Of a DNA stretch of 64,000 nucleotides, positions 1 through 64,000 are shown one piece after another; the stretch's first letter is position 1; each line of letters begins with the position of its first letter. The position numbers and the translations under genes were made by a program. The notes under the pieces were generated by a model, which ran no database searches, had not been told where the DNA came from, and saw only the letters and a program-made list of their open reading frames with translations. The stretch spans positions 16,748-80,747 of the forward strand of contig NZ_CAJPQR010000003.1 of assembly GCF_905372745.1 (NCBI RefSeq), in the 5' to 3' direction. The DNA comes from an uncultured Campylobacter sp. (GTDB lineage Bacteria; Campylobacterota; Campylobacteria; Campylobacterales; Campylobacteraceae).

Positions 1-624
1 CTGCTTCGCTGCATAAATTTACTCGAAATCCCCGAGGAAGGCGAACTGGAGCTAGACGGCGAGAAGATAAAATTCGGCGGCAAAATTTCGCCAAAAGAGC
101 TACTGCCTTTTCGCAGGCGAACGGGGATGGTGTTTCAGGGATTTCATCTGTTTCCGCATCTAACGGTTTTACAAAACGTGATCGAAGGACCGACGCAGGT
201 ACTTGGCACCGACAAGCAAACGGCGATAAATAAAGCCCTCGAGCTGCTAGGCAAGGTTGGCATGGCGGATAAGCAAAACGCCTATCCGAACAGACTCTCG
301 GGCGGTCAGAGCCAGCGCGTGGCGATAGCTAGGGCGCTAGCGATGGATCCGTCGTTTTTGCTGCTAGACGAGCCAACTAGCGCGCTAGATCCGGAGCTGG
401 AAGCCGAGGTGCTAAAAGTCGTCATAGCCCTAGCCAGAGAGAAAAAATCCCTCGTCATCGTCACGCATAATATGAATTTTGCTCGCAAAGTCGCGGACAG
501 GATTTTATTTTTGGATAAAGGCAAGATCGCGTTTGACGGCGATGCGGAGAGATTTTTCGCTAGCCGAAACGAGCGTATAATGAGCTTTATCTCGGCGATG
601 GATATAAGATTTTTGAAATTTTAG
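1..624 (+). CDS. Polar amino-acid ABC transporter ATP-binding protein (5' end lies outside window)
   Basis: Frame 1 is open from nt 1 (LLRCINLLEIPEEGELELDG...) and runs into the listed 127..624 ORF. ABC signature LSGGQSQRVAIARAL, Walker B LLLDEPTSALD, H-loop VTHNM. Confidence 0.9.
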   Translation: MLRCINLLEIPEEGELELDGEKIKFGGKISPKELLPFRRRTGMVFQGFHLFPHLTVLQNVIEGPTQVLGTDKQTAINKALELLGKVGMADKQNAYPNRLSGGQSQRVAIARALAMDPSFLLLDEPTSALDPELEAEVLKVVIALAREKKSLVIVTHNMNFARKVADRILFLDKGKIAFDGDAERFFASRNERIMSFISAMDIRFLKF

Positions 625-645
625 CGATAAATTTAAGGAGAGAAA

Positions 646-1788
646 ATGAAACTAGACACGCTAATCGTAAAAGGCATCGAGGCCAAGCATAACCCTTTTG
701 GAGCCGTCGTGCCGCCCGTTTATCTGGCGACGACGTTCGTGCAAGAGGGGCTAGACGGCTTTGGCGAGTTTGCCTACTCGCGCGGCGCAAATCCGACTAA
801 ACAGGCGTTTGACGAGCTTTTTGCTAAGGTAGAGGGCAGCAAATACGCATTTAGCTTTGGCTCGGGAATGGCGGCGACGGCAGCGGCTTTTAGTCTGCTA
901 AAAACGGGCGATAAGGTGCTGCTAAACAATAACGTCTACGGCGGCACTTTCCGCTACGTTAGCAATGTCTTTGCGTCGCAGGGCATAAGCTACGAGGCGG
1001 TGGATGATTTAAATTTATTAGAGGAAAAAGATATCGCAAAGGACGTGAGAGCGATATTTATCGAAACGCCCTCAAATCCGCTGCTGCGCGTGACCGACAT
1101 CCGCCGTATCGCAGACATCGCGCACAAAAGAGGCATCCTAGTGATTGCCGATAATACCTTTTTAACGCCTTATTATCAAAAGCTTTTTGATTTTGGCGTA
1201 GATATCGTAGTTTATAGCGCGACGAAATACATCGGCGGACACGCAGACGTGATCGCGGGTATCGTTACGATAAACGACGACGCGCTAGCCGAAAAGATAA
1301 AATTTGCCAGAAATACGTTTGGCGGCATAATCAGCCCGATGGACGCTTATTATCTGATGAGAGGCCTTAAAACCCTTAGCGTGCGCTTTGATCGCCAGAC
1401 GCAAAATACGCATAAAATCATCGAATTTTTAAAATCGCACGAAGCGGTAGATGCGGTGCACTACGCGGGATCGCACTCGCAGCTAGAAAAGCAGATCCAG
1501 GCCCGCCAAGCAAGCGATATCGGCGCGGTTATATCGCTGGAGCTAAACGAAAAATACGACTATAAAATTTTTGCCAAATCTCTGGAGCTTTTTGATCTAG
1601 CCGTGAGTCTTGGCGGCGTTGAGAGCCTCATCTGCCAGCCCGCGTCCATGACGCACGAATCATACCCTAAAGAGCTGCAAGATAAAATCGGCATAAAGCC
1701 TAATCTGCTGCGCCTTGCTATCGGCGTAGAAAACGCAGACGACCTAATCGCCGATCTGGCTCAGGCGATAAAAAAGGCTAAAATTTAA
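646..1788 (+). CDS. Cys/Met-metabolism PLP-dependent enzyme (cystathionine beta-lyase / gamma-synthase family)
   Basis: 380-aa ORF with AGGAG-type RBS (aaggagagaaaATG). PLP-lysine motif YSATKYIGGHADV. Family-typical ETPSNPLL and LGGVESL segments. Confidence 0.85.
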   Translation: MKLDTLIVKGIEAKHNPFGAVVPPVYLATTFVQEGLDGFGEFAYSRGANPTKQAFDELFAKVEGSKYAFSFGSGMAATAAAFSLLKTGDKVLLNNNVYGGTFRYVSNVFASQGISYEAVDDLNLLEEKDIAKDVRAIFIETPSNPLLRVTDIRRIADIAHKRGILVIADNTFLTPYYQKLFDFGVDIVVYSATKYIGGHADVIAGIVTINDDALAEKIKFARNTFGGIISPMDAYYLMRGLKTLSVRFDRQTQNTHKIIEFLKSHEAVDAVHYAGSHSQLEKQIQARQASDIGAVISLELNEKYDYKIFAKSLELFDLAVSLGGVESLICQPASMTHESYPKELQDKIGIKPNLLRLAIGVENADDLIADLAQAIKKAKI

Positions 1789-1797
1789 CTTTGCTTG

Positions 1798-1905
1798 CCG
1801 CCTTGGCGCTTTTGTCGCTCGGGCTAAATTTATCAAATTTAGCCTTGACTAGGCGCGCAAATGGGTGCGCCTAGTTTGATAAAGCGGCACCCGGCGCCAA
1901 GGCGG
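1798..1905 (+). terminator. Compound inverted repeat downstream of the PLP-enzyme gene: an outer 12-bp stem enclosing two hairpins, followed by a T-run
   Basis: The outer stem pairs ccgccttggcgc (1798-1809) with gcgccaaggcgg (1894-1905). Inner hairpin 1 is ggctaaattt-atc-aaatttagcc (1822-1844). Inner hairpin 2 is ctaggcgc-N10-gcgcctag (1849-1874). The sequence ctttatttttt follows. Confidence 0.45.
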
Positions 1906-5067: not shown

Positions 5068-5430
5068 TCACCCTAGCAAAATTTCCTTCCTTGCCTCAAA
5101 TTCCTCTTTGCTTATCGCGCCGCTCTCATAAAGCTCGTAGAGGCGTCTAAGCCGCTCCTCGAGGTCTTGCGCGCGCAGTTTGTCTTTTAGCGCTTCTTTT
5201 TTCTGATTTTTCTCGACCGCCGCGCCGGTTAGGCGTAGATCAAAGAGCCACCACGCGCCCCAAAGCGCCCAAAATACGTAGCCGACAAGCGCCCAAGCTA
5301 GGCTATATCCGATGAAAAACAGCGCCATCATCGCAAAGCCGCTCACGAATTTGCCTAGATAAAATCTATGCCCGCCAAACCAGCCCGTAAGCAACCAAAG
5401 CGCGTAGGCTATATAAACGTTATCGCCCAT
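5068..5430 (-). CDS. TM2-domain membrane protein with C-terminal SHOCT-like helix
   Basis: TM2 motif LLTGWFGGHRFYLGK. C-terminal LYESGAISKEEFEARKEILL. The start overlaps the lspA stop. Confidence 0.7.
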   Translation of the reverse strand: MGDNVYIAYALWLLTGWFGGHRFYLGKFVSGFAMMALFFIGYSLAWALVGYVFWALWGAWWLFDLRLTGAAVEKNQKKEALKDKLRAQDLEERLRRLYELYESGAISKEEFEARKEILLG

Positions 5431-5950
5431 TTTTAGCCCCTTTTCGTCCCACGGCGAAGCTCTGCCAGAGTGTGAGTACGACCCCGACGTCGATCATAAC
5501 GTCTGCGAGGTTAAAGATCGCAAACTCAAACCACTTGTGCCAGTAGACGTAGTCCACGACGCCGCCGTGAACGAAACGGTCGAGCAAATTTGAGCTACCC
5601 GCGCCCAGTATTATACCCGCTCCTAGCGCGTGCTCTTCTAAAATTTCCTTTTTTTCGCTATCTTGGGTCAAATTTGACTCCGTTTTCGCTGCGTCCCGCG
5701 CGTCAAATTTGCGCTTTAGTCGCCAGAGTAGATAAGCGCAAACGCCCGCGATCAGCACTAGCTGGATAAATTTGAGCCATTCCCCCAGAAACGCAAACAT
5801 CGAAAACGCCACGCCGCGGTTGTATGCAAGCACTAGCGAAAAGTACTCGCCCTGCCACGAAAAACCGCCCAAAAATATCTGCTTGACCGCCTGATCGAGT
5901 GCTAAAACGACGAAAAACGCCGCGAAAAAAACGCCTAAAATTTTAGCCAT
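5420..5950 (-). CDS. lspA: Lipoprotein signal peptidase II
   Basis: Motifs YNRGVAFSM and [12 protein letters not shown]. It carries a charged insert ([31 protein letters not shown]) encoded by AAATTT-word DNA. Confidence 0.85.
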
Positions 5951-7286
5951 TTAGCGCTTTTACGAAAAATTTCTCGACCTCGTCCATGCGGGTTTTTAGC
6001 GCGTCGGCACACTTGCCCTCGATCAAAAGTCTGATGAGGTTTTCGGTGCCCGAGTATCGAAATAGCGAGCGGATGCCCTCTTTTGCGAGGCTTGCTTCAA
6101 GCTCTTTTAGCCCGGCGATGCTTTCAAGCGGCTTTTTCTCTGTTATCTTTAAATTTAGCAAAATTTGCGGATACGGCTTTATCTCGCTTAAAATTTCGCT
6201 CGCTTTTTTACCCTTTTTTAGCACCAGTGCCGCAAACTGCAGCGCCGCCACGAGTCCGTCGCCCGTCTTTGCGTAGTCGCTAAAGATGATGTGACCGCTT
6301 TGTTCGCCGCCGAAATTCGTGCCGTTTTCTTTCATCTTTTCAAGCACGTATTTGTCGCCGACGTTTGCGCGTAGGAGCTTGATTTTGTGGGATTTTAGGT
6401 AGTCTTCGAGTGCTGCGTTGCTCATCACGGTAGCCACGACCGCGCCGCCTTTTAGGGCTTTGTTTTCTTGTAAAAATGCCGCCATGACGCCTAGCAAACT
6501 ATCGCCGTTTGCCACCTCGCCGCACTCGTCTACGACCACGAGTCTATCGGCGTCGCCGTCAAACGCAAAGCCCAGATCGGCCCGCAATCGCACGACCTCG
6601 GAGGCTAAATTTTGCGGATAGAGCGCGCCGCAGTTTAGGTTTATGTTGCTGCCGTTTGGTTCGTCGTTTATGACGATGGTTTCAGCTCCCAGCTCGCTAA
6701 ATATAGTCGGAGCGACCTTGTACGCAGCGCCGTTTGCGACGTCTAAAACCACGCGCAGTCCGTGCAGGCTTAGGTTTTTAGGAAATGAGTTTTTGATCTG
6801 CACGATATAGCGGCCGATGACGTCGTCGATGCGCTTTGCGGCGCCGATTTCAAGCATCTGTTTTTGCGATCTTTCTATGAGCGCGTCGTCATAATAAATC
6901 TTTTCTATCTGCTCTTCGGCCTCTTCGCCCAGTTTATTGCCGTCGCTGCCAAAAAATTTGATGCCGTTATCGTAATACGGGTTGTGCGAGGCGCTGATCA
7001 TGATGCCCGCGTCGCAGCGCATATCCTCGGTGAGAAACGCTATCGCAGGAGTAGGCATCGGGCCGATCTGACGGACGTTGTAGCCCACGGCCGTGAGCCC
7101 CGCGACGATGGCGGTCTCGATCATGTAGCCGCTTTTGCGCGTGTCTTTGCCTAGTAAAATAGTGTTCGTATGCGACGCAAACTGTCTAAAATATATCCCC
7201 GCAGCCATAGCAAGGCGCATGGACGTTGCGGCGGATAGTTTTTCGCCGGCTTTGCCGCGGACGCCGTCGGTACCGAATAGTTTCAT
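5943..7286 (-). CDS. glmM: Phosphoglucosamine mutase
   Basis: 447 aa. Active-site [15 protein letters not shown]. Mg-binding FDGDADR. N-terminal [11 protein letters not shown]. Confidence 0.95.
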
Positions 7287-7313
7287 TATCTTTCCTTTTT
7301 TTAAAATTTCTAC

Positions 7314-7431
7314 GGCCTTATCTCTTGAGTATATTTAAAAGGGCTAGCAAAAATAAATGCTCACGGACGACCAGTCCGCTCCGCTTTATTTTTGCGTCGC
7401 AACTTTTAAATCTATCTCAAGATATAAAGCC
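7314..7431. other. 118-nt three-tier imperfect hairpin in the glmM/rpsT divergent region
   Basis: The outer arms are ggccttatctcttgagtatatttaaaag (7314-7341) and cttttaaatctatctcaagatataaagcc (7403-7431), about 24/28 paired. The middle stem is a perfect 11 bp: gcaaaaataaa (7347-7357) with tttatttttgc (7385-7395). The apical stem is cggac-gacca-gtccg (7364-7378). Confidence 0.6.
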
Positions 7432-7651
7432 TTATCAACTTTTTGGGTGGCAAACACTGCGTCTTTAAATTTATGGTAAGATAAAATTTGCCCGCCAAAT
7501 TCCATAAATTCATTAAATTTTCGACCTATTCTATCAAAAAATATCCAAATTTAAGTTGTAAATTTACTCGCTTTAAATTTTACTTAAATTAAGCGGATTT
7601 TAAAACTGGTTTTTATATAATCACGGACTAAAATTATGAAAAAGGGACATT

Positions 7652-7918
7652 ATGGCAAACCATAAATCTTCTGAAAAAAGAGCCAGACAGACTATCAAAA
7701 GGACTGAAAGAAACAGATTTTACCGCACTAGGCTTAAAAATATCACTAAAGCCGTGCGCGTAGCCGTTGAGGCAGGCGATAAAGAAGCCGCGCTAAACGC
7801 GTTTAAAGTGGCAAACAAAGATTTCCACAGCTTCGTTAGCAAGGGCTTTTTGAAAAAACAAACAGCTTCTCGCCGCGTAGGACGTCTCGCAAAACTCGTA
7901 AATAAACTATCTGCTTAA
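7652..7918 (+). CDS. rpsT: 30S ribosomal protein S20
   Basis: 88 aa, basic. [13 protein letters not shown]... is the typical S20 N-terminus. Confidence 0.95.
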
Positions 7919-7930
7919 TCTAAATTTTTA

Positions 7931-8998
7931 ATGTTAGCCGACAAACTGCAGCCTTTTTTGGATCGCTACGACGAGCTCTCTCGTCTACTTAGCGATCCGT
8001 CTATCACAAACGATATCGCAAATATGACCAAGCTCTCCAAAGAGCAATCAAATTTAGAAGATATCGCCTCGGCTGCAAAGTCCTATCTACAAACTCTCGC
8101 GGACATCGAGGAGAACAAGGCTTTGCTCGATGACGCCGAGCTTGGCGAGCTAGCCAAAGACGAACTAAAAAATCTCGAATCCAAAAAAGAAAATCTCGAA
8201 GAAGAGATTAAAATTTTACTCCTTCCAAAAGATCCGAATGACGATAAAAACGTATTTTTAGAGATCCGCGCGGGAACGGGCGGAGATGAAGCGGCGCTTT
8301 TTGCGGGCGATTTGTTTAACGCCTATGCCAGATACGCCGAGCTTCGCGGGTATAAATTCGAGATCGTGAGTCAAAGCGAAGGTAATACGGGCGGTTTTAA
8401 AGAGATTATTTTGCTGATAAAGGGCAAGGGGGCGTACTCGAGGCTCAAATTTGAGGGCGGCACCCACCGCGTACAGCGCGTACCCGAGACCGAAAGCCAG
8501 GGTCGTGTGCACACCTCTGCAGTCACCGTCGCTATCATGCCAGAAGTCGAAGACAGCGAGATCGAGATAAATCCAAACGACCTTCGTATCGACGTTATGC
8601 GCAGCTCCGGTCACGGCGGACAGTCGGTAAATACGACCGACTCGGCGGTGCGAATCACCCACATCCCCACAGGCATCGTCGTCACGAACCAAGACGGCAA
8701 AAGCCAGCACAAAAACAAAGAAGCCGCGATGAAGGTGCTAAAAGCGCGCCTTTACGAGATACAAGAAGAAGAGCGCCTAGCCAAAGAAACCAGCGAGCGC
8801 AAAAGCCAAGTCGGCACGGGCGACCGCTCGGGACGTATCCGCACCTACAACTTCCCGCAAAACCGCATCAGCGACCATCGCATAAATTTGACGCTTTATC
8901 GCCTCGACGCGATAATGGCGGCAGGGCTTTTCGACGAGATCATCGAGCCGCTGATTGCGCATTATCAAGCCGAAGCAATCTCGGACGCTGAAATTTAA
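7931..8998 (+). CDS. prfA: Peptide chain release factor 1
   Basis: 355 aa. GGQ motif [25 protein letters not shown]-1 type tripeptide region [10 protein letters not shown]. Confidence 0.96.
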
Positions 8999-10088
8999 GC
9001 TGCTATAAATTTTGCGTAATTTTAATTTTTACTCTACGAGCGGTTGTATTCTAGGGTATTTTTATTAAATTCGTATTTTGATTTTTACTTTGCGCCACTG
9101 CCGTTAAATTTTATAAAATCGTAAACCGATTTTGACAAATAAATTGCGATATTTTAGACGGTCGTGGCGTTTGTTTTGCGGATTGATTTAGTATAAAGAG
9201 GTCGCACCGGTTTTTGTTTGCTAAATCCGAAAATATTTTCTTACTCTTTTAGACAAATTTAAACCCAGCGTAAATTTACATTGTTGCATTAAGATTTTTA
9301 GGCCTGGCAGCCCAAATCAAAACGTCTTAAAAAGCGCCGAGATAAAAGCAAATTTATAAAGTTATTTAGCTACGAAGCCATACTTTTGGCGTAACTTTGT
9401 TTAAAACTCTGCGCTCACGCATAATAGCCGCAGACTTTGCTCTTATGCGTCGTTAATTTCTAACAGACTTTGCAAGCTTGTAGCTTACGTCGGCGCCGAG
9501 TTTAAATTTAACATCGCCTGTCGCATTTATCGCTTGCGATTAGTTAGATTAGCTTCCGATTTACGCGTAGCTTCTTGCGCCAGGACCGTCTCGTCCGACC
9601 TTATCGCCCAGGCGCTAAATTTTGCCGACAGACACGGGGCGCAGATGTTTGAAAACTTCCATCTCTACGCTTATGCGAAAAGTTACGTCGCTTTACTGGC
9701 GACGGTCGCAGAGCAAATTCGGCACTTGCACGGATATGTTTTTGCAAAGATTTAGGTTGAGGCATTTTATCTTTTAAGTCGTTTTAGAACTGTTTAAATT
9801 TAATGTGATTTTGCTTCCTTGCGCCTACGTTAATTTAGCTTTGCGGACAAACGAGCGCTTTGTATTTGCCTGTTTAAGTGGCATTTGCTGAACTGCTTAC
9901 AAAATCGGCCCGAGGCCTTGCAGGCTTTGGTGCATAAAGCGCGCATTTGTAGCTCGGTAGTAACTTCTGAAGCACTTACGCTAGCTCAAAGCTTTGCGAC
10001 GTGGCGCTGGCTTGCAGGGGTAAAGCGCCGACCTTTTTAGCCTTGCAAAATTGGCAACGCAGTCGCCTTTGCTACGGCAAAACGCGGG

Positions 10089-10670
10089 CTAAATTTTACC
10101 GGTTAAAATTTGCACGATAGTTTCGGGCAAAATTTCATGCTCTATCTCGTGGATTTTGGCCTCGTAAGCTTCAAAGCTCATTCCCGCGCTCTTTTCAAAC
10201 GCACGCTGAGCGATGATCTTGCCGCCGTCTAGCTCCTCGCTGACCCAGTGCACGCTCACGCCGCCCACCTTCATATCGCTATCAAAGCTCTCTTTTATGG
10301 CACGCGCGCCCTTAAAAAGTGGCAGCAGCGATGGGTGCAAATTTATCGCGCGAATCTGCCTCGTAAAAACGGGCGTAAGGATGCGCATAAAGCCCGCAAG
10401 AACCGTTAGATCGACGTTGGCACGCTTTATCTGTGCTACGACCGCGGCGTCAAACTCTTCTCTAGAGGCAAAATTAACGTGCTCGGTAACGACGCTTTGC
10501 AAGCCGTATTTTGCGGCTTTTGCTATGCCGCCTGCGTTAGCTTTATTTGTTAACGTTAGCGCGACCTCGATCTTGGTTTCGCCAAAAACTTTGCCGTGCA
10601 GATTCTGCAAAATCGCATCCAAATTTGAGCCGCCGCCACTAAATAAAACCGCTATTTTTTTCGTAAGCAT
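10089..10670 (-). CDS. purN: Phosphoribosylglycinamide formyltransferase
   Basis: 193 aa. Motifs VLFSGGGSNL, NLHPSLLP and SVHWVSEELDGG. Confidence 0.9.
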   Translation of the reverse strand: MLTKKIAVLFSGGGSNLDAILQNLHGKVFGETKIEVALTLTNKANAGGIAKAAKYGLQSVVTEHVNFASREEFDAAVVAQIKRANVDLTVLAGFMRILTPVFTRQIRAINLHPSLLPLFKGARAIKESFDSDMKVGGVSVHWVSEELDGGKIIAQRAFEKSAGMSFEAYEAKIHEIEHEILPETIVQILTGKI

Positions 10671-12073
10671 TTGAGTCCTTTGATGACGTCCGCGGCCGTG
10701 AGCGCGTAGTCGTTGATTTTGATTTCGCGGGCGGCTAGAGCGTGAGCTAACGCGCCCGAGATCGCGGCATTTAGCGGATCGTAACCTTGCGCCAGTAGTC
10801 CCGCGACGATACCGCTTAGCGCGTCTCCGCTACCGCCTTTTGCGAGTGCGGCGCTACCTTGCGTCATGACGTAGACCTCGCCGCCTTGCGCGATTAGCGT
10901 ATTTGCGCCCTTTAACACAAGCACGCATTTAAAATTTCGGCTAAAAATTTGAGCGAGATTGAAGCGATTTTTTTGCACTTCGCGGACGTCAAATTTGCCA
11001 AGATTCGCAAGCTCCAGCAAGCTCGCAAACTCCTTTGGATGCGGCGTTATTACGACGTTTTTATTATTTAAAAGCTCAAGCGTGCGCGGCTCATAGCAAA
11101 GATCGGCGTCGATAACGAGCGCGTCTTTTTTTTTTAGTTCGCTAAAAAGCTCGTCTTTTTGCACCTCGTCAAGCTCGCCAAGTCCCATACCGACGGCTCC
11201 GACTCGCATTTTGGGCGTTATGCGCGCGCTTTGCATTAAAACGGGCTCAATGTTTAAATTTTTGCCCACGACGCTAACGAGTCCCGCACCGATAGTTAGC
11301 GCGGCAAGTCCCGCTATACGCGCCGCTCCGCCCTTTTCGCCGCTAACAACAAACACGTGCCCAAAGTCGCCCTTGTTAACGTTTTGCTTAGCGCGAAACG
11401 GCAAATTTAAATCGCTTTTTCCAAGTTTATAAAAGCTCGTCCCCGTCTCGTACAGCTCGCGAGAAAGGCCCAAATTTGCGACCTTTACGCGCCCCACGAA
11501 ATCTTTTGCAAAGTCGTTATAAAGCGCTAGCTTTAACGCACCCATCGTCACAGTCGTATCGGCCTTAAAGACCGTGCCTTGCGGCACGCCGTTTTTATCA
11601 AGACCGCTCGGGATATCGCAGGCGAGTTTGTAGGCGGGTTTTGCATTTAGTAGATTTATCAAATTTATCATCCGCTCGTCTAGCTCACGGCTAAGTCCGG
11701 TTCCGAAAATCCCATCGATGATGCAGTCAAATTCGTCGCTTTGCGTCAAATTTGAGATCAAATTTACGCCGCATTTTAGCGCTCTGGTTAGCTCGGTTTT
11801 TGAGATTTCATTTTGTTTGTCGCTCGCTAAAAACGCAAAACAATCAAATTTATCGCCCAAAAGCCGAAGTGCGGCAAGTACGTCTGCGCCGTTATTTCCG
11901 CTGCCGACTACGCCTAAAATTTTACGGCGTTTGGTCGATGATTTTTTGAGCCTAGTCCGTACTGCGCGAGCTAACGCATTCGCGGCGTTTTGCATCAAAA
12001 CTTCGGTGCTAAGCCCAAACTCGCTCACGGCTCTAGCGTCAAGCTCCGCCGTATCCCAAAATAGCTTTTTCAT
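10652..12073 (-). CDS. nnr: Bifunctional NAD(P)H-hydrate repair enzyme (YjeF_N epimerase + ADP-dependent dehydratase)
   Basis: 473 aa with a two-domain architecture. The N-terminal domain has GSGNNGADVL. The C-terminal carbohydrate-kinase-like domain has KGGSGDALSGIVAGLLAQG. Confidence 0.85.
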   Translation of the reverse strand: MKKLFWDTAELDARAVSEFGLSTEVLMQNAANALARAVRTRLKKSSTKRRKILGVVGSGNNGADVLAALRLLGDKFDCFAFLASDKQNEISKTELTRALKCGVNLISNLTQSDEFDCIIDGIFGTGLSRELDERMINLINLLNAKPAYKLACDIPSGLDKNGVPQGTVFKADTTVTMGALKLALYNDFAKDFVGRVKVANLGLSRELYETGTSFYKLGKSDLNLPFRAKQNVNKGDFGHVFVVSGEKGGAARIAGLAALTIGAGLVSVVGKNLNIEPVLMQSARITPKMRVGAVGMGLGELDEVQKDELFSELKKKDALVIDADLCYEPRTLELLNNKNVVITPHPKEFASLLELANLGKFDVREVQKNRFNLAQIFSRNFKCVLVLKGANTLIAQGGEVYVMTQGSAALAKGGSGDALSGIVAGLLAQGYDPLNAAISGALAHALAAREIKINDYALTAADVIKGLKCLRKK

Positions 12074-13590
12074 GCGCCCTCCTGCTTCACTCGGTAGCTC
12101 AAAGCCTCTAAAATGTGCGGCTTTTTGATGATACGCGAGCCCTCGATGTCGGCGACCGTGCGGGCGACTTTTAGGGTTTTATTTATAGCGCGGCGACTGA
12201 GCGAAAATCTCTGCGTCGCGTGATCTAGCGCCCTGCTCGCCTCGTCGTCGCAAATGCAAATTTTAGCAATCTCTTCGTCGCTAAGCTTGCCGTTTAGCTC
12301 GCTTTGAGCGCGCGAGATTTGCGTCTCAAACACGCGTAGCACGGTATCTTGCATCGATTCGCTCGTAACGTCGCTTTTATCATCGGCGCTCACCTCGTCC
12401 ATCTGTACGTGAAGGTCGATGCGGTCTAGCACGGGTGCCGAGATGCGCGATTTATAGCGCTTGATCTCAAGCTCCGAGCATTTGCACTCTAGATTTTTAG
12501 AGAGTAGGTTGCCGCAAGGACACGGGTTCATCGCGGCTACGAACATAAATTTAGTCTCATACGTGATTTTTGAATTTACGCGCGAGATGTTGATTTTGTA
12601 GTCTTCCAGCGGCTCGCGCAGGCTCTCTAAAATTTGCGGCGCAAAGTGCGGAAGCTCGTCAAAAAATAAAATCCCACCGTTAGCTAGCCCGACCTCGCCG
12701 ATCCTAGCCGAGCTCGATCCACCGCCGAAAATAGAGCTGCGCGTGCTCGTGTGATGAGGCGAGCGAAAGGCTCGCAGGGCGGAAAATTCGCTCTCCTGCT
12801 GATTTAGCGAGCTATAAGCGCAGCTAAGCAAGATCTCATCCAAGCTTTGCGGCGGTAAAATGTAGCGCAGGCGCTTGGCGCTCATGCTCTTGCCGCATCC
12901 GGGGCTACCCTCAAAGATAATGTTATGCATACCGCAAGCGGCCACCAGGCAGGCTCTTTTTGCTCTACTTTGGCCTTTGACGTCGCTAAAATTTAGCTCG
13001 AAATTTTGATTTTTTACGAAGCTTTTTTCGCCGATTTTGATTAAATTCGAAAAAAGCGGATGAACGCTGCCGACTTTGCGCAAAGCGGTAAACTCTGGCT
13101 CTAGGAAAAATTTGATCGCTTCGGCTAAATTTGAAACGGCGTAAATTTCTAAATTCGGTATCGCGCCCGCTTTTTGCGCTATCTCTTGCGGGATCAGCAC
13201 GCGAGAGCCCGGCGCTTTCGCGCTCAAAAAAAGTAGGATAGAAAAAAGGCTCGCCGTACTTTTGACGCCGCCGTCGAGCCCCAACTCGCCAAATACGAAA
13301 ATAGGCTCGAAGTCGCGCTCTTTTTGCAAGGCGATTAAAAGCGCGATAGGCAGGTCAAAGTGACTGCCTGATTTTGGCATATCGGACGGGGATAAATTTA
13401 TGATGATTTTTTGCGCTGGAAAAGAAAAATTTAACGATAAAAGCGCTGATTTTACGCGCTCGGCGCTCTCTTTGATCGAAGCACCAGCAAGCCCTACGAT
13501 ATTAAGCGCCGGCAAACCGCGGTTAAAACTGGACTCGACGTCTACAAGCCGCAATTCGTCGTTATAAGTGGCGCATTTTAGGGCTTTCAT
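12070..13590 (-). CDS. comM: ComM/YifB-family Mg-chelatase-like AAA+ protein (competence-associated)
   Basis: 506 aa. Lon-protease-like N-terminal domain. Walker A GSPGCGKSM. Walker B ILFFDELPHF. C-terminal ChlI-like segment. Confidence 0.85.
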   Translation of the reverse strand: MKALKCATYNDELRLVDVESSFNRGLPALNIVGLAGASIKESAERVKSALLSLNFSFPAQKIIINLSPSDMPKSGSHFDLPIALLIALQKERDFEPIFVFGELGLDGGVKSTASLFSILLFLSAKAPGSRVLIPQEIAQKAGAIPNLEIYAVSNLAEAIKFFLEPEFTALRKVGSVHPLFSNLIKIGEKSFVKNQNFELNFSDVKGQSRAKRACLVAACGMHNIIFEGSPGCGKSMSAKRLRYILPPQSLDEILLSCAYSSLNQQESEFSALRAFRSPHHTSTRSSIFGGGSSSARIGEVGLANGGILFFDELPHFAPQILESLREPLEDYKINISRVNSKITYETKFMFVAAMNPCPCGNLLSKNLECKCSELEIKRYKSRISAPVLDRIDLHVQMDEVSADDKSDVTSESMQDTVLRVFETQISRAQSELNGKLSDEEIAKICICDDEASRALDHATQRFSLSRRAINKTLKVARTVADIEGSRIIKKPHILEALSYRVKQEGA

Positions 13591-15160: not shown

Positions 15161-15170
15161 AATTTACTCT

Positions 15171-19132: not shown

Positions 19133-19157
19133 CCTCAAATTTGCAAAAAAGGCAAAA

Positions 19158-24054: not shown

Positions 24055-25242
<1,188 letters not shown>

Positions 25243-50302: not shown

Positions 50303-50602
50303 CGCTTTTTCCTTAAAGTAAAATTCGGCGGTTATGATATTAAATTTCAGCTTTTAAACGGGTAAATTTGGCCTTTTTAGAGCGAATTTACCCGCATTTT
50401 TACGGCACGGCGAGTTAAATTTGCAAAAATTTAAATCGCAAATTTGAGCCGTGATTTAAGGGCTAAATTTAAGCGCAAATTTATAAGCCCCGTTCGTCTT
50501 TGCGGCGGGCGATTTGGGGCGTCAAATTTAGCCGCAAATTTGAGCGAGATTAGCCGCAAGAAGTAAATTTTAAACTAAAATTAGCCTTTTTGAAAGGACG
50601 AA

Positions 50603-52219: not shown

Positions 52220-52730
52220 ATGCAGGCTAAAACCGGCGCAAACGAAATGAAAATTTTAGACGACGTCATCGCTCCAAACGTCGGAGTCGGGGGTATATAT
52301 TTGGGCGAAAACGTTAATGATATCTTTAGCAAGTTAGACAAACCAGGCTACGAAATAAACGATATACGCGACGACTGCATAAAAATAAAAGAATCGTTTT
52401 TGGATATTTATTTCGACCCTATAAATTTTGAAATTTCCCTTATCTCGTGCGGCGTAAATTTTAACGGATATTATAAAACGTCAAAAGGGCGCATCTGGGC
52501 GGGGATGAGCGTAGCGGATATCTTTGCAAAATACGACCGAACAGGTCGCTTGGGGCGGATTCGTCGCGGTCGATAGGATTTGGGGTATCGGGTTTCCTTT
52601 GCCGGAAGAATTCGATGATTTTTCCGAATTAACCGATTTTTTAGATTATGATTTCGTTTTTAAAGAATTATGTGTATATAAAGACGCAAACGCGAATAAT
52701 TTAAAGGCCAACAAGCGGCGCAAGCGATAG
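52220..52730 (+). pseudogene. Frameshifted small gene (two overlapping ORFs 52220..52576 and 52524..52730)
   Basis: The second frame opens only at 52515 and has no RBS. The two frames overlap across ..gcaaaatacgaccgaacagg... The joined product would read ..RIWAGMSVADIFAKYD / TEQVAWGGFVAVDRIWGIGFPLPEEFDDF... Confidence 0.5.
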
Positions 52731-52790
52731 AAATTAGAATTTAAAAAATCGCAAAAAATAATTGGCAAGCAAGAGGGTTTGATTGATAAA

Positions 52791-52955
52791 ATGAAAAATA
52801 TCCTTGTTTGGGGCTATCCCGTTAAAGATAACGAAAAAAGAGAAAAACTAAAAATACCGTTTTGCGACCAGATAGGCATTTTGGAGGAATTTAATATTAA
52901 AAAGACGCATCCGCCTTTTAGCTACGAATGGGTCGATACCGGTATAAACGGATAA
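52791..52955 (+). CDS. 54-aa ORF, possibly the N-terminal part of the next ORF
   Basis: The product is MKNILVWGYPVKDNEKREKLKIPFCDQIGILEEFNIKKTHPPFSYEWVDTGING*. The frame of the next ORF opens at 52948, seven nt before this stop. Confidence 0.3.
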   Translation: MKNILVWGYPVKDNEKREKLKIPFCDQIGILEEFNIKKTHPPFSYEWVDTGING

Positions 52956-52965
52956 TATCCATCCT

Positions 52966-53403
52966 ATGCCCGAAGACGTAACTATATGTATAAAATCGAT
53001 AAAAAATATTAGCTTTGATTTCTTGCCTTACGGCCTCGGTTTTTATATCGTTTCAGAAAGACTACTGTCTTTTTTAGAAAAGAACGGGTTTGATTATAAT
53101 TTTGACAAGAGTATCGCGTATCTGGTAAATACGAAAGGAAATTTGCTTACCGATGAGGCGTTTTATCTGGTAAGAATAATCGGATGGAAAATAAAAGAAG
53201 AGGTCGTTTATCCGGATTTAGCCAATCCGAAACAAGGCTTGTCGGCGGCGGCTTATACGGACTCGCATAGAGATATCCTTTTAACTAGAAATTATTGCTA
53301 TTTAAATACGTTAATAGTCAATAAAGATTTAAAAGATGAAATCTTAACTCTTTTTCGTAACCCTTTTTTGTACTCGCTAGGCGAATGGAAAAAGCTATCG
53401 TAA
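52966..53403 (+). CDS. Hypothetical AT-rich ORF (145 aa), with the look of an immunity-type protein
   Basis: There is no RBS before the ATG. The DFLPYGLGFYIVSERLLSFLEKNGF segment resembles polymorphic-toxin immunity families from memory only. This is not verified. Confidence 0.5.
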   Translation: MPEDVTICIKSIKNISFDFLPYGLGFYIVSERLLSFLEKNGFDYNFDKSIAYLVNTKGNLLTDEAFYLVRIIGWKIKEEVVYPDLANPKQGLSAAAYTDSHRDILLTRNYCYLNTLIVNKDLKDEILTLFRNPFLYSLGEWKKLS

Positions 53404-53551
53404 TTGGCGCGGCTTGGTCGGCGACTAAGTTTGGCGTCTTCAAAAAATCGTATATAGGCTTATCGATTATATTTTTGATGCCATTTAAGTAACTAAAATG
53501 CTCGTCGAAACAAATGGCGTTAAGCTCGTTTTGATAAATAAATAATCGCAT
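53318..53551 (-). CDS. Doubtful 77-aa ORF convergent with and overlapping the previous ORF
   Basis: ATG at 53551 with aaaggggtgga upstream. It overlaps 52966..53403 by 86 nt. Confidence 0.2.
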   Translation of the reverse strand: MRLFIYQNELNAICFDEHFSYLNGIKNIIDKPIYDFLKTPNLVADQAAPITIAFSIRLASTKKGYEKELRFHLLNLY

Positions 53552-53591
53552 ACGAATCCACCCCTTTATTACTTGGTTATTTATCTTAAAT

Positions 53592-53911
53592 TTACCCCCT
53601 GCCGCCGTAAAGCACCGCGCAAGCGCCAAGCAGGCAAATCGCGTCGCCGATTAAGTCCCATTTCGTAAAGGCTTGCTTTTCTACAAAATGCAGCCAAAGC
53701 AGCGACGAGACGATGTAGATACCGCCGTAGACGGCGTAAGCGCGTCCGGCGAAGTCTAAATTTACCCGCGTCAAAATATAAGCAAACGCCGAGAGCGACG
53801 CCCCGCCGAGAGCTAAAAACAGCGCGCTTTTGTAATACACGCCCAAAAGCTAAAGCAGCCCAAAATCTCAAAAAACGCCGCCGCGAAATAAAGCAAGATT
53901 TCTTTTAACAA
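53592..53911 (-). pseudogene. ynfA: YnfA/UPF0060 membrane protein gene with a 1-nt frameshift
   Basis: The N-terminal 23 codons (LLKEILLYFAAAFFEILGCFSFW, TTG at 53911 overlapping the xth stop) lie in one frame. The rest (GVYYKSALFLALGG...AYAVYGGIYIVSSLLW...) lies in another. The frames meet at the A4 run 53845-53848 (T4 on the coding strand). Confidence 0.7.
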
Positions 53912-54675
53912 AGTCCGTCCAGATCGATCTCTATGCCGACGGGGCAGTGATCCGAGCCCGCGATATCGCTTAAGATAAACGCATCTTTTAGGCGGTCTTT
54001 GAGGCTTGATGAAATGAAAAAATAATCAATCCTCCAGCCGACGTTTTTGGCGCGAGCGTTAAAACGGTAGCTCCACCACGAATACGCGTCCGCCTCGTCG
54101 CCGCGCACGTGCCGAAACGTATCGATAAAACCGCGCGAGACGACCTCGTCCAGCCACGCTCGCTCGATAGGCAAAAAGCCCGAGGTTTTGGCGTTTGCTT
54201 TTGGGTTTTTTAGGTCTATTTCGCGGTGAGCGGTGTTTACGTCGCCGCAAAATATCACGTCTTTGCCCTGCTTTACGAGCTCCTCTATATACGCCAAAAA
54301 TTTAGCGTAAAAATCCATCTTGTAGGCTAGGCGCGTCTCGTCTTTTTGGCCGTTTGGAAAGTAGATGTTAAAAAGTACGACGTTGCCGAATCTATGCTCC
54401 AAAACCCGCCCTTCGTCGTCGTCAAAAAACGCCGCTTTTTGCGTAACGGAGCTAAATTTAGCCAGACTCATCACGCCGGAATACCCCGCTCTGGCCGCTG
54501 AATTTACGCTGATTTCGTTAAATCCGAGCTTGTAAATCTCGGCAGGCACGTCGCTCTCGCGCACTTTAATCTCCTGAAGGCCCAAAAAATCGGGTCTATG
54601 CTGCTCTAGCCAAGCAAAGCCGTCTTTAGCAGCGACGGCACGCAGTCCGTTTACGTTCCAGCTGATTAGTTTCAA
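53905..54675 (-). CDS. xth: Exodeoxyribonuclease III
   Basis: MKLISWNVNG, GLQEIK, CGDVNTAH and GSDHCPV. Confidence 0.93.
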   Translation of the reverse strand: MKLISWNVNGLRAVAAKDGFAWLEQHRPDFLGLQEIKVRESDVPAEIYKLGFNEISVNSAARAGYSGVMSLAKFSSVTQKAAFFDDDEGRVLEHRFGNVVLFNIYFPNGQKDETRLAYKMDFYAKFLAYIEELVKQGKDVIFCGDVNTAHREIDLKNPKANAKTSGFLPIERAWLDEVVSRGFIDTFRHVRGDEADAYSWWSYRFNARAKNVGWRIDYFFISSSLKDRLKDAFILSDIAGSDHCPVGIEIDLDGLC

Positions 54676-54730: not shown

Positions 54731-54985
54731 TTGATGAACGAGCTAGCAAGAGAGATTTTCGCTCAAATTTTGGGCGAGAAAAAGACGGAAATAATTTTAT
54801 TTTTAGCGCAAAATGCCGACGAAAACGGCTTTATTTGCATTAAAATTTCGCAAATCTGCGAGCAAACGAGCGCTAGCAAACCAACCGTCATAGAGACGAT
54901 AAAACTGCTAGAAAGCCGTAAAATTTTCGAGCGTATCAAAAACGGGATTTACCGCTTTAAAAATCTAAAAGAGCTACAAAAATAA
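54731..54985 (+). CDS. Small winged-helix DNA-binding-like protein
   Basis: 84 aa, with TTG 54731 or ATG 54734 as the start. The segment ISQICEQTSASKPTVIETIKLLESRKIFERI looks like an HTH. Confidence 0.45.
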   Translation: MMNELAREIFAQILGEKKTEIILFLAQNADENGFICIKISQICEQTSASKPTVIETIKLLESRKIFERIKNGIYRFKNLKELQK

Positions 54986-57475: not shown

Positions 57476-57736
57476 ATGAGGAAAATTTTACTTTTAGCGG
57501 CGATTTGCGGCAGCGTTTTTGCAGAGCAAACCTACGAACTAAATGTACCTAACATGAACTGCGGCGGCTGCGCCAAGAAAATCGAAGATGCCGCAAAAAG
57601 CGTCAAAGGCGTAAAAAGAGTGAGTTTTGATCTAAAAAGCAAGGACGTAAATATCACCGCAGATAGCGGCGCAAACGTGATGGACGTCGTGCGCGCCATC
57701 CAAGCTAAAAAATACAAAGTCGGTATCAAAGAATGA
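57476..57736 (+). CDS. Secreted heavy-metal-associated (HMA) domain protein, MerP-like
   Basis: Signal peptide MRKILLLAAICGSVFA. Metal-binding motif MNCGGC. Confidence 0.8.
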   Translation: MRKILLLAAICGSVFAEQTYELNVPNMNCGGCAKKIEDAAKSVKGVKRVSFDLKSKDVNITADSGANVMDVVRAIQAKKYKVGIKE

Positions 57737-57999
57737 AAAAGCTAGCTCTGGTTTTCGCGCTTAGCGCGGCGGCGTTTGCGGACAAGACGCTAGTTTACGA
57801 GATCCCCAATATGGCCTGCGTGAGCTGCTACGAAGTCATCACGCAGACGCTAAATACGCTTAAGGGCGTAAAGAAATTTGATGTAAATTTGGAAGCTAAA
57901 ACGGCCGATATCGTCGTCCAGGACGACTTTGCCGAAAATACGGTCGTAGAGGCGCTCAAAAAACAGGGCTATCAAGCTGTTTTAAAATCTGAAAAATAA
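57733..57999 (+). CDS. Secreted HMA domain protein, MerP-like (second copy)
   Basis: Signal peptide MKKLALVFALSAAAFA. Metal-binding motif MACVSC. ATGA overlap with the previous gene. Confidence 0.8.
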   Translation: MKKLALVFALSAAAFADKTLVYEIPNMACVSCYEVITQTLNTLKGVKKFDVNLEAKTADIVVQDDFAENTVVEALKKQGYQAVLKSEK

Positions 58000-61811: not shown

Positions 61812-62366
61812 ATGTATATCGTTCTAGGCGTCCTCGCCGTTCTCGCGCTCATCGTTATTTCGACTTATAACTCGCTCATCGGCAAGCGAAACCAAGTCCT
61901 AAATATCAAATCAGGCGTCGATACGCAGCTAAAAAAACGTTTTGACCTCATCCCGAATTTAGTCGCCACCGTCAAGCAGTATCTCACGCACGAGCGCGAG
62001 CTGCTAGAAAACATCTCAGCGCTTAGAAGCGGCATCCAAAAGGCTGCGGGCGACGAGCAGAGATTTGCGCTAAACGGCGAGCTATCAAATCTAATCTCAA
62101 AGTTAAACGTCGTCGTGGAGAATTATCCTGAACTAAAAGCAAATGAAAACGTAATGCACCTACAAAAAACGATAAATGATATCGAGGAGCAGATCTCCGC
62201 CGCGCGCCGCGCCTACAACGCCGCCGTGACCGATTACAACAACGCCGTGGAGATGTTTCCCTCAAACATCGTCGCTAGCTGGGCGAGGTTTAGCAAGGCA
62301 GCATTTTTCGAGGTGCCTAAGGGGCAAGACGATCCGCACGACGTGCACGAGCTTTTTAACCGCTAA
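61812..62366 (+). CDS. lemA: LemA-family membrane protein
   Basis: N-terminal TM, then YNSLIGKRNQV... and RRAYNAAVTDYNNAVEMFPSNIVA, both typical LemA segments. Confidence 0.85.
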   Translation: MYIVLGVLAVLALIVISTYNSLIGKRNQVLNIKSGVDTQLKKRFDLIPNLVATVKQYLTHERELLENISALRSGIQKAAGDEQRFALNGELSNLISKLNVVVENYPELKANENVMHLQKTINDIEEQISAARRAYNAAVTDYNNAVEMFPSNIVASWARFSKAAFFEVPKGQDDPHDVHELFNR

Positions 62367-62621
62367 ATTTGCGCTCAATTCGCCAAATTTGAACTAAATT
62401 TAGGCGCTTTAGCTGCGCTCTTAAATGCAAGCGGACTGGCTAAATTTGAACGAAAAAAGCGGCGCGAACGGTAAATTTAAGCGGCAAATTCGGTTTTAAT
62501 CAAAACGCCACAGCTCATAAACGGCGAGCTAAAATTTAAGCGGTTTAAACGCAAATTTAAAAACGAAAGCTCGCAAAATAGCCAAATTTGCAAAAGGGCA
62601 TTAAATAAAACAGGAGCAAAA

Positions 62622-63488
62622 ATGGACGATCTGGTCATGCTAGAGCTTGAGCGACAAAAGGTTTTACGCTCGCTTTTTAGGCTAAAGCTTGCCTGCGTTT
62701 TTATCGCTGCGGCCGCATCTTGGCTGCTTTATCTAGCCTCGCATAAAGCCGCGCTTAGCATCGGCGCTTTCGTAGTTTGCGCGGTCGCGATTTATTATTT
62801 TTTCGAGAGTATTTTCACGGATAGCTTTACCTTTAAATTTAAACGAAAAGTTATACGCAGCATCGTTGAAAGCTGCGGCCTAACCTACCATCCGGGCGGC
62901 TTCGTAGAAAATGATTATTTATATATGATTTATGATTTTGACATCGATAAATACTCGGGCAACGACCTGATTTTCGGGCAGATAGAGGGCGTGCGGGTCA
63001 AATTTAGCGACGTAGAGGCGATAAGCATCAAAGAGGACTGGCAGGGGAACAAGACTCATAGAGTGCTTTTTGCGGGGCTTTTGTTTGTCGCCGATTTTCC
63101 TAAACGACTAAAGGCCGTCACTCAAATTTGCAGCGGGACGGATGATTTTAAGGACTACGGCGGCAAGCGCGCGAGGATGGACGACGCGGAGTTTGAGCGG
63201 TATTTTAGGGTTTACGCAACCGATCAGATCGAGGCTAGATACGCGCTCACGCCAAGCTTGATGGAGAGCTTAAAACTGCTAAAAATAAGATTTCACCGCC
63301 CCATAAACATCGTGCTAACCGGGGATAAAATCTGCATGGCGATCCGCACGGGACGCGATAACTTCGAGCCCGATCTGCGCCGTCCGCTCGTGGGCAAGGG
63401 CGCGAATAGATTTTACAAAGACGAGATCGGCGGCTTTTTGCGTATCGTCGAGGAGCTGCGGCTAAACCGTAAAATTTGGGCAGATTAG
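62622..63488 (+). CDS. DUF3137-family membrane protein
   Basis: Two N-terminal TM segments. FERYFRVYATDQIEARYALTPSLMESL, a family-typical segment as I recall. Confidence 0.65.
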   Translation: MDDLVMLELERQKVLRSLFRLKLACVFIAAAASWLLYLASHKAALSIGAFVVCAVAIYYFFESIFTDSFTFKFKRKVIRSIVESCGLTYHPGGFVENDYLYMIYDFDIDKYSGNDLIFGQIEGVRVKFSDVEAISIKEDWQGNKTHRVLFAGLLFVADFPKRLKAVTQICSGTDDFKDYGGKRARMDDAEFERYFRVYATDQIEARYALTPSLMESLKLLKIRFHRPINIVLTGDKICMAIRTGRDNFEPDLRRPLVGKGANRFYKDEIGGFLRIVEELRLNRKIWAD

Positions 63489-63598
63489 GTGGTGCGGCGT
63501 CAAATTTGACGGGCGGCATAACCCGCACCCCAAAAATCTAAACGAGCGTGCGAGACGAAAGTCACCGAGCGCGGCGGTAAAACGAAAAAGGAGAGCGG

Positions 63599-64000
63599 AT
63601 GAAGGGCGTAGCGATAAGCGAAACGACGATAGTCGGCGATGATGGGAAATACTATAAATTTAGCTTTGAAGAGGTGCGCGCGGGGCGGCCGGACGGAGGA
63701 GAGCGCGTGGCGTTTCGAGCCGACGGGGAGTTTGCCCGCGACGTATTCGTGGTGACGGACGAGGGCGAGAGGCGCACCACGAAAGACGCCAGAAGCGAGG
63801 AGACGAAGGCGGCACTAAAAGAAAGCGCGGCATTTTGGCGGGCTAGGACGGCAGGCATAGCTTCCGGCGTCGCGCCTGCCGTTATCAAACTTTACGCGTT
63901 TTTTATCGCGGACTACGCGGGGCTAAAGCTACAAATCGCCGTTGCTCTAGCAGTCCTCGTAGGCGCGCTGCTAACCTATGCGGCGCTAGGCGGTATCGCG
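63599..64000 (+). CDS. Hypothetical protein, 3' end outside the window (not in the supplied ORF track)
   Basis: ATG at 63599 after aaaaaggagag. It is open for 134 codons to the window end (MKGVAISETTIVGDDGKYYKFSFEEVRAGRPDGGERVAF...). Hydrophobic segments appear near the end. Confidence 0.5.
   Translation, partial: MKGVAISETTIVGDDGKYYKFSFEEVRAGRPDGGERVAFRADGEFARDVFVVTDEGERRTTKDARSEETKAALKESAAFWRARTAGIASGVAPAVIKLYAFFIADYAGLKLQIAVALAVLVGALLTYAALGGIA

Follow-up and report, generated by a model that had tools for sequence, protein, structure and literature searches.

What keeps the palindromic hexamer AAATTT at 452 copies in 64 kb of Campylobacter DNA? The stretch in question (hereafter the window: 64,000 nt, 47.0% G+C, positions 16,748 to 80,747 of contig NZ_CAJPQR010000003.1 from an uncultured Campylobacter sp.) had been singled out in a first-pass annotation, which described AAATTT-centred palindromes as strongly over-represented and likened the pattern to a DNA-uptake signal or to the methylation motif RAATTY. 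We found the over-representation to be real and strong, and to take the shape of RAATTY, the motif methylated in C. jejuni by the orphan methylase CtsM. The window probably displays the RAATTY/CtsM methylated self-DNA tag of Campylobacter, in a clade of higher G+C content where this tag is more conspicuous; it adds a striking case to a system already known and does not reveal a new type of signal. The trigger factor encoded in the window is 96–99% identical to that of C. showae CC57C and of many metagenome-assembled genomes of uncultured oral Campylobacter, and the best DNA match to the window has 94.6% identity. By these matches, the window is placed in a species of the C. showae group of oral Campylobacter.

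Over-representation of AAATTT in coding and non-coding DNA

With 452 copies between positions 1 and 64,000 (7.06/kb), AAATTT is the top-ranked hexamer of the window, the next non-overlapping hexamers reaching about 145 copies each. When all RAATTY sites are counted the number is 566 (8.8/kb), and the longest stretch without such a site is 738 bp. Base composition (order 0) predicts 22 copies of AAATTT, and Markov models of order 1 and order 2 predict 92 and 103, which amounts to an excess of about 20-fold over composition and 4.4-fold over order 2. At order 3 the prediction rises to 354 copies and at order 4 to 443, the latter because the pentamers AAATT and AATTT lie almost wholly inside the word; the AATT tetramers of the window have an A in front in 82% of cases, a T behind in 82%, and are part of AAATTT in 69%. 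We therefore set the order-3 and order-4 models aside as circular, and instead used codon-preserving shuffles and a background from which RAATTY had been masked.

For the coding analysis, 63 open reading frames (ORFs) were called heuristically, covering 82% of the window. They contain 258 copies of AAATTT, compared to 93.6 ± 6.3 when synonymous codons are shuffled within genes (2.8-fold, z = 26) and 53 when the order of codons is shuffled. All three frames contribute, with 95, 63 and 100 copies in frames 0, 1 and 2 where the synonymous shuffle predicts 68, 11 and 14. The first-pass annotation had stated beforehand that loss of the enrichment under a higher-order Markov or a codon-preserving null would speak against it. 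On the Markov side the excess persists at orders 0–2, while order 4 reproduces nearly all of it in the circular manner described above; under the codon-preserving shuffle the enrichment survives.

The bias is readily seen in individual codons. Asn is written AAT in 100 of 103 cases where the context permits the word, and in 33–39% where the context cannot form it; Ile is written ATT in 63 of 76 cases where the word is possible, and in 6–7% if the next codon does not begin with T; and Lys-Phe is written AAA-TTT in 95 of 119 cases. No comparable excess was found for TTTAAA, AAAAAA, TTTTTT, AATATT or ATATAT. Peptide contexts that are able to encode the word synonymously do so in 64% of cases in the window and in 64–82% across Campylobacter, as opposed to 22–26% in Helicobacter and 13% in E. 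coli. Moreover, such contexts are 1.5–3 times commoner per 1000 amino acids in Campylobacter than in Helicobacter or E. coli, and the signal therefore reaches into protein sequence. Outside genes the word is denser still, at 15.7/kb in spacers (about one copy per 64 nt) versus 4.9/kb in coding sequence, and of the 40 spacers that are 30 nt or longer, 34 contain the word, in agreement with the near-universal spacer occurrence that had been described by eye. The AAATTT enrichment is thus a signal at the level of the DNA and not a coding artefact.

Specificity for RAATTY

We next compared all 16 hexamers of the form NAATTN against an order-2 background built with RAATTY masked. In the window AAATTT was enriched 11.5-fold, AAATTC 6.2-fold, GAATTT 5.7-fold and GAATTC 2.9-fold, while the 12 hexamers that are not RAATTY forms ranged from 0.3- to 1.5-fold. 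The enrichment in the window thus follows the degenerate RAATTY, and not AATT or AnTn in general. The same procedure gave approximately 3-fold enrichment of AAATTT, AAATTC and GAATTT in C. jejuni, 13-fold and 9-fold in C. concisus, and 15-fold in C. showae ATCC 51146. In E. coli, H. pylori, H. mustelae and H. hepaticus all forms remained at about 1-fold, showing that the masked background does not by itself create the signal. AAATTT is the dominant form of RAATTY, and the functional unit is a 6-mer with RAATTY-type tolerance. The suggestion that the pattern reflects RAATTY and CtsM accordingly fits the data, since only the RAATTY forms are enriched and C. jejuni displays the same profile.

We also considered the target of a type II restriction-modification system (ApoI-like, RAATTY) and rejected it; the target is enriched and not avoided, and the neighbours of ctsM in C. 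showae are mqnA, fliQ, murB, recA and eno.

GAATTC, which is at once a RAATTY form and the EcoRI site, is depleted relative to composition, with 6 copies in the window versus 17 expected. Coding sequences of the showae group contain 15 copies versus 34 under the synonymous shuffle. In C. concisus (among loci L037–L058) the corresponding numbers are 0 versus 14 in six loci of approximately 42% G+C, and 5 versus 13.5 in loci of approximately 38% G+C. This depletion suggests avoidance of an EcoRI-type restriction enzyme on top of the RAATTY enrichment.

Distribution of the word in Campylobacter and in control genomes

Other genomes were sampled as stretches of about 20 kb, comprising some 70 loci around tig from C. 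showae-group species, C. sp. MOP7, C. concisus, C. gastrosuis, C. portucalensis, C. majalis and C. jejuni. In these Campylobacter loci, which span 29–49% G+C, AAATTT ranks first or second among hexamers at 4.7–8.5/kb. The excess over composition rises from 3.3-fold in C. jejuni to about 20-fold in the showae group, and the ratio to the synonymous shuffle is 1.7–3.3 in all Campylobacter groups. An independent locus from C. showae ATCC 51146 gave 7.96 copies/kb. The density is common to all 11 Campylobacter groups or species sampled, and the proposal that this particular lineage had newly evolved a word of its own is not supported.

As negative controls, E. coli K-12 (51% G+C) has 0.38 AAATTT/kb, ranking 668, and three Helicobacter species have 0.87–1.74/kb. 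The enrichment is thus confined to Campylobacter among the genomes compared. The contrast is also seen in orthologous genes: the lspA-glmM-rpsT-prfA cluster contains 17 copies in the window and 5 in H. pylori. Within it, glmM (5943–7286, minus strand) has six, irrespective of reading frame and exactly as first counted, compared to two in the H. pylori orthologue. The lspA-glmM and rpsT-prfA genes are syntenic between the window (5420–8998) and H. pylori (L086:6305-9642), which provides a like-for-like control for the motif; the H. pylori cluster adjoins the urease operon. For RAATTY as a whole, published site counts, which we converted to densities by way of genome size, give approximately 8.4/kb in C. 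jejuni, 8.3/kb in C. coli and 6.7/kb in C. fetus, next to 8.8/kb in the window.

Conservation of individual sites

Divergence was measured in 27 relatives with 87–95% DNA identity, which were pooled and are phylogenetically non-independent. The third base of Ile ATT had diverged in 0.7% of cases inside the word and in 20.8% for the same codon outside it. The corresponding values were 2.1% and 23.3% for Asn AAT, 1.25% and 8.05% for Lys AAA, and 4.8% and 7.5% for Phe TTT, so that synonymous positions in the word show 1.5–30 times less divergence than the same codons elsewhere. Spacers behave similarly, with 3.6% divergence inside the word and 8.3–10.3% outside. Variants that preserve RAATTY (GAATTT and AAATTC) are among the commonest changes, but they are not strongly favoured.

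Positional conservation was assessed in the conserved purN-yjeF-comM-def-GGDEF-clpP-tig-folE-fliI block (10089–20258), which holds 45 sites in nine genes. Within the showae group, 41 of the 45 sites occupy the identical position in the nine orthologous genes. The first-pass annotation had regarded random positions between strains as the outcome that would count against a function, and this result clearly points the other way. In C. concisus, C. jejuni and others, 8–17 of the 45 sites are at the same position, where about 0.25 would be expected by chance. The totals nevertheless change little, with 43–53 copies of AAATTT in six fully aligned comparisons of about 8.8 kb, and 43, 51 and 31 in three shorter comparisons with C. 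jejuni, C. portucalensis and C. majalis, respectively. Since totals are steady while positions differ, the sites turn over and their density is largely maintained.

The CtsM methyltransferase

DNA uptake by C. jejuni is described as requiring RA(m6A)TTY, the mark that the orphan methylase CtsM sets (PMC10046745, PMC8468864, PMC8437040). Methyl-dependent transformation has been demonstrated in C. jejuni only, and conservation of CtsM has been reported for four species (PMC8437040). One account puts the spacing of the motif at about 60 bp (bioRxiv 10.1101/2024.09.10.611283). Its methylation is complete in C. jejuni, C. coli and C. fetus, with 24,750–28,482 strand-sites per genome (PMC4294202, PMC8627207, PMC13436318), and is documented in C. 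hyointestinalis as well as in C. coli and C. fetus (PMC8627207, PMC13436318). In addition, C. rectus is reported to be naturally transformable (bioRxiv 10.1101/2024.07.26.605372).

We obtained CtsM from a C. jejuni-type metagenome contig (L081:16240-17331; 364 aa, PF02086, with FSGSG and DPPY motifs). There the gene lies downstream of thrS-infC, the contig adjoining the end of the locus sampled from C. jejuni; synteny between the window and C. jejuni stops after fliI. Homologues of CtsM occur throughout Campylobacter, including C. curvus, C. concisus, C. ureolyticus, C. fetus, C. gastrosuis, C. portucalensis and C. sp. MOP7. CtsM is also represented in a cluster of 990 members, most of which come from ENA/Logan metagenome assemblies, and about 120 alignment columns are invariant across 13 species. 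Two homologues from C. showae, WP_039895003.1 and WP_122863129.1, are full length, have intact catalytic motifs and share 58–59% identity with C. jejuni CtsM (59% for WP_039895003.1). A homologue of the conserved enzyme that the first-pass annotation had named in C. jejuni is thus present in C. showae as well, as an orphan D12-class gene. In C. showae ATCC 51146 (CP012544.1) ctsM is found between mqnA-fliQ-murB and recA-eno, with no Pfam-recognisable endonuclease gene within 10 kb. No ctsM was found in the tig-centred loci by a scan for motif IV.

In C. showae ATCC 51146, ctsM, recA and eno follow one another directly in this order on one strand, with 112 bp between ctsM and recA (L084:10001-12308), and the methylase gene may or may not be co-transcribed with recA.

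A proposed methylated self-DNA tag

In the explanation that we prefer, RAATTY is the target of orphan D12-class N6-adenine methyltransferases of the CtsM family that are conserved across Campylobacter, and the chromosome would be methylated at the third A, on both strands, at every RAATTY site. The competence machinery would import only DNA bearing the methylated word, which would serve as a very short and very dense tag of self DNA. A density of about 7–9 sites/kb would be held genus-wide regardless of G+C content, by selection or by uptake-biased recombination acting on the DNA itself, and this force would be sufficient to prevail over codon preference and to skew dipeptide content. Longer palindromes and hairpins would follow from an abundant self-complementary core with symmetric flank preferences. 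This explanation takes up observations made here, namely an enrichment that has the specificity of RAATTY and is restricted to Campylobacter, the per-site conservation and the intact orphan CtsM homologue of C. showae; methylation of the sites in the showae lineage and their role in DNA uptake would carry over from the C. jejuni literature.

The parallel with the CtsM/RA(m6A)TTY system of C. jejuni is close in several respects. The same RAATTY class is enriched, at the same density per kb and with the same NAATTN profile; the showae lineage has a homologous orphan D12 methyltransferase; and the genus possesses a competence system of the T2SS/T4P type. The window itself contains comM, as first noted (12070–13590, minus strand; a competence-associated YifB-family AAA ATPase), with 10 copies of AAATTT. 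The pilin-like gene mentioned alongside it was not recovered, either by Pfam searches of all 63 called ORFs or by a scan for prepilin motifs. There are differences, however. C. jejuni has 30% G+C and an excess over composition of about 3-fold, as opposed to 47% and about 20-fold in the window, the preference for AAATTT over AAATTC and GAATTT is about 2-fold greater in the window, and ctsM is situated by thrS-infC in C. jejuni but beside recA-eno in C. showae. For the showae clade, methylation and dependence of uptake upon it would be expected by analogy.

In its behaviour the word also resembles HIP1 of cyanobacteria (GCGATCGC), a short palindrome present in enormous excess in every frame as well as in spacers, more than codon usage accounts for. 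HIP1 is associated with a cognate methylase and is reported to raise transformation in a methylation-dependent manner (bioRxiv 10.1101/2024.09.10.611283). The resemblance is one of behaviour only, as HIP1 is a GC-rich 8-mer of another phylum, with an unrelated methylase family and an unsettled mechanism.

Several observations weigh against a self-DNA tag. The window contains no ctsM, as judged by the lack of any ORF with a [DNS]PP[YFW] motif and of any PF02086 match, and its presence in the source genome would be expected from close relatives. Relaxed constraint at the degenerate outer positions of the word was looked for by per-position divergence and was not seen: positions 1 and 6 diverge by 2.5% and the inner positions by 1.6–3.3%, and the outer positions are thus as constrained as the inner ones. 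AAATTT is preferred over GAATTT and AAATTC far beyond what the degeneracy of RAATTY predicts, and GAATTC, with 6 copies versus 2.1 expected from the RAATTY-masked background, is not clearly enriched. The sites are mildly clustered (coefficient of variation of the gaps 1.16–1.24) and not evenly spaced as selection for coverage would predict. Orphan RAATTY methyltransferases are also kept in Spirochaetes and Akkermansia, where they have no known role in uptake. The main tension is quantitative. A single methylated site about 1 kb away reportedly suffices for transformation of C. jejuni; it is therefore not obvious why a tag for uptake alone should need 7–9 sites/kb or strong conservation of each, and the thousands of individually conserved sites, together with the AAATTT preference, sit uneasily with one site being enough.

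The constraint seems to go beyond the need of a self-tag in four ways: synonymous divergence is up to 30-fold lower in the word, 64–82% of possible contexts are occupied, contexts of this kind are commoner in the proteins, and 7–9 sites/kb are held at 29–49% G+C. For this reason we tentatively raise the possibility, to which we give a minor share of our confidence, that the dense RA(m6A)TTY lattice has a second chromosome-wide role (strand or age marking for recombination or repair, or nucleoid organisation), or that the uptake machinery reads density quantitatively. A link to recombination would agree with the location of ctsM, which directly precedes recA in C. showae. Campylobacter is not known to have MutHL-type mismatch repair.

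Alternative explanations

The strongest competitor to the self-DNA tag reverses the order of the two roles. The methylated RAATTY landscape would then have a primarily chromosomal function, as a strand or timing mark for replication or repair, in the nucleoid or in global regulation, comparable to Dam or CcrM, and uptake would have adopted the mark later. This would account for purifying conservation of single sites far beyond an apparent need for one site per fragment, and for the three-fold higher density in spacers, which is at its maximum (20.1/kb) in divergent, promoter-bearing ones. The position of ctsM next to recA in C. showae agrees with it too, as do the RAATTY methyltransferases that Spirochaetaceae and Akkermansia possess (PMC4752239; bioRxiv 10.1101/2022.11.07.515285). 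These share the motif and are clade-conserved orphans, but unlike C. jejuni CtsM they have no known uptake role. Pairwise distances between cores have small peaks at 11–13 and 20–24 nt, a weak preference that counts in favour of a chromosomal role, but no periodicity or helical phasing was significant, the Fourier amplitudes reaching only about 2 standard deviations (z about 2). A ctsM mutant of C. jejuni is said to have no growth defect, and the sequence points to no specific chromosomal process. We regard a primarily chromosomal role as possible, though clearly the less probable account.

Selection could alternatively act on the shape of the DNA, A3T3 having a narrow minor groove and an intrinsic bend, such that the word would be a binding or bending element for nucleoid proteins independently of methylation. 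AnTn and TnAn tracts differ in bending, and the 452 copies of AAATTT versus 139 of TTTAAA in the window differ in the direction expected from this; the enrichment in spacers and the weak spacing signal near 11 nt are likewise in line with a structural element. The preference is, however, sharply for exactly A3T3, with 290 such runs compared to 42–63 each for A2T3, A3T2, A4T3 and A3T4, 18 for A4T4 and 29 for A2T2. G or C is tolerated at the outer positions only and in the RAATTY pattern, AAATTA, AAATTG, TAATTT and CAATTT not being enriched. Together, the exact A3T3 and the RAATTY-type tolerance indicate readout of bases and not of shape. Helicobacter relatives that are richer in A+T lack the enrichment as well, and we consider shape selection unlikely.

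A longer uptake sequence, read by sequence alone in the manner of the DNA uptake sequences (DUS) of Neisseria and the uptake signal sequences (USS) of Pasteurellaceae, was suggested by the 10- to 14-mer palindromes such as CTAAATTTAG or GTCAAATTTGAC and by inverted pairs resembling terminators. All positions listed for these palindromes were right to within one base, and further copies exist. CTAAATTTAG occurs 15 times (the nine positions listed and six more), and TCAAATTTGA or its 12- and 14-mer extensions 17 times (13 listed and four more); GTAAATTTAC starts at 3502, 3938 (within a 12-mer starting at 3937), 7558 and 9270. The 12-mers at 5667 and 31784 were verified, as was the 14-mer CGTCAAATTTGACG at 63498–63511, by exact count the longest perfect palindrome around a core. 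Cores are not usually extended, however: 38% of the 452 reach a palindrome of at least 8 and 14% one of at least 10. Compared to a shuffle of half-sites, palindromes of at least 8 (173 versus 139) and of at least 10 (63 versus 41; P = 0.002) are modestly in excess, and those of at least 12 (13 versus 13) are not. Overall, the longer palindromes are at about 1.2–1.5 times the level of independent half-sites. The expectation of 0.06 copies per 10-mer that had been used to gauge them is the wrong null; given the core, half-sites predict 8.0 copies of CTAAATTTAG and 7.8 of TCAAATTTGA, which are thus only about 2-fold exceeded. Flanks show a weak preference for T or C at −1 and an avoidance of G, and sequence logos hold little information beyond ±2 and none beyond ±3.

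Two perfect 10-bp hairpins lie just 3' of genes, and both are real, as had been claimed. The first, GGCTAAATTT-ATC-AAATTTAGCC (1822–1844, plus strand; two cores; −13.1 kcal/mol, z −2.8), is downstream of a gene for a Cys/Met pyridoxal phosphate enzyme (646–1788), and the second, CGTCAAATTT-GATTTTT-AAATTTGACG (41546–41572, plus strand; −14.4 kcal/mol, z −4.7), is downstream of a thioesterase gene (41136–41531). Neither has a T tail, however, and a preference of AAATTT for 3' ends or terminators is not borne out by spacer orientation in the window, convergent spacers having 14.6/kb, tandem ones 14.8/kb and divergent ones 20.1/kb. Any two nearby cores form a 6-bp stem because the core is self-complementary, and stems of at least 8 are found in 17 of 120 close pairs, about as flank frequencies predict. 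The long palindromes and hairpins are therefore mostly by-products of an abundant self-complementary core with symmetric flank preferences. As with DUS and USS, AAATTT is over-represented genome-wide, within genes and between them, is conserved among related species, biases peptide content and may be linked to natural transformation, here by analogy with C. jejuni. DUS and USS are nonetheless non-palindromic words of 9–12 nt, present at about 1/kb and read unmodified, DUS being often paired in terminators, whereas AAATTT is a 6-bp palindrome at 7–9/kb with no terminator preference that, if C. jejuni is a guide, would be recognised only when methylated. An extended uptake word with terminator pairing is accordingly very improbable.

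Lastly, a functionless artefact of A- and T-run richness, codon usage, codon-pair bias or context-specific mutational bias is barely credible: AAA and TTT are indeed the two commonest trinucleotides and order-3 and order-4 models come close to the observed count, but the latter agreement is circular, the sub-words lying inside the word, and the synonymous-shuffle z of 26, the involvement of all three frames and of non-coding DNA, the lack of comparable enrichment of TTTAAA, AAAAAA and TTTTTT, the conservation of sites far beyond that of matched codons and the absence of the enrichment from E. coli and Helicobacter all argue against it.

Immediately 5' of the core G is avoided (as is C immediately 3'), being found at 7% of the 452 cores overall and 3% in spacers. 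GAAATTTC has only 2 copies, compared to 97 of TAAATTTA and 46 of CAAATTTG. This avoidance could be a preference of the methylase or of a reader protein.

Implications

If the window does display the CtsM-type tag, self-recognition by methylated RAATTY would not be limited to the thermotolerant clade of C. jejuni but would also be found in the oral clade of C. showae and C. concisus, which includes emerging pathogens with poor genetic tools. Should the system work alike in both, methylation of RAATTY in PCR or plasmid DNA in vitro should make species of the showae/concisus clade transformable. The constant density of the word while G+C drifts from 30% to 47% is also a natural experiment, which gauges how far codon usage, and even protein sequence, can yield to a signal of 6 bp. 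It sharpens the question of why so many copies are kept.

Other features of the window

The densest spacer (41532–41707) has eight copies of AAATTT in 176 nt (45/kb), spaced 12–25 nt apart. Another (50303–50602) has 10 copies (33/kb) and contains a mini-array at 50427–50483, for which Tandem Repeats Finder reports a period of 12, 4.6 copies and the consensus AAATTTAAGCGC. AAATTT repeats in steps of 12 and 24 nt in this array and in the spacer 41532–41707. An origin of the word from repeat elements was rejected, as the tandem-repeat search yields only tiny arrays and the flank logos are empty beyond ±3.

At the other extreme is a stretch of 683 bp without AAATTT (52457–53138), which spans the AAATTT-free spacer 52577–52965 and the start of an Imm43-family immunity gene (52966–53403, 35% G+C); the spacer on the other side of this gene (53404–53580) also lacks the word. 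The region is probably a recently acquired polymorphic-toxin immunity islet in which the word has not yet accumulated. Nearby, a short ORF with a RepL domain (54731–54985), RepL being a plasmid replication protein of Firmicutes, adjoins a gene of the Exo_endo_phos nuclease family (53905–54675), and the pair may be a remnant of an integrated element.

Three long stretches of 0.84–1.09 kb (8999–10088, 26573–27659 and 1789–2627) lack any ORF of at least 80 aa and carry 8–14 copies of AAATTT each. Small genes or unannotated RNAs in them are possible; the large spacers of the window gave no tRNA or Rfam matches. The def-clpP-tig block, conserved in other respects, is interrupted between def and clpP by a GGDEF protein (14096–15160), which together with an 810-aa PAS-GGDEF-EAL protein (37017–39449) makes two cyclic-di-GMP-type proteins in the window. 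Finally, two small heavy-metal-associated (HMA) proteins of 86 and 88 aa are encoded in tandem at 57476–57999, with overlapping stop and start codons, upstream of an 841-aa protein resembling a TonB-dependent receptor, in which the Plug domain alone was recognised.

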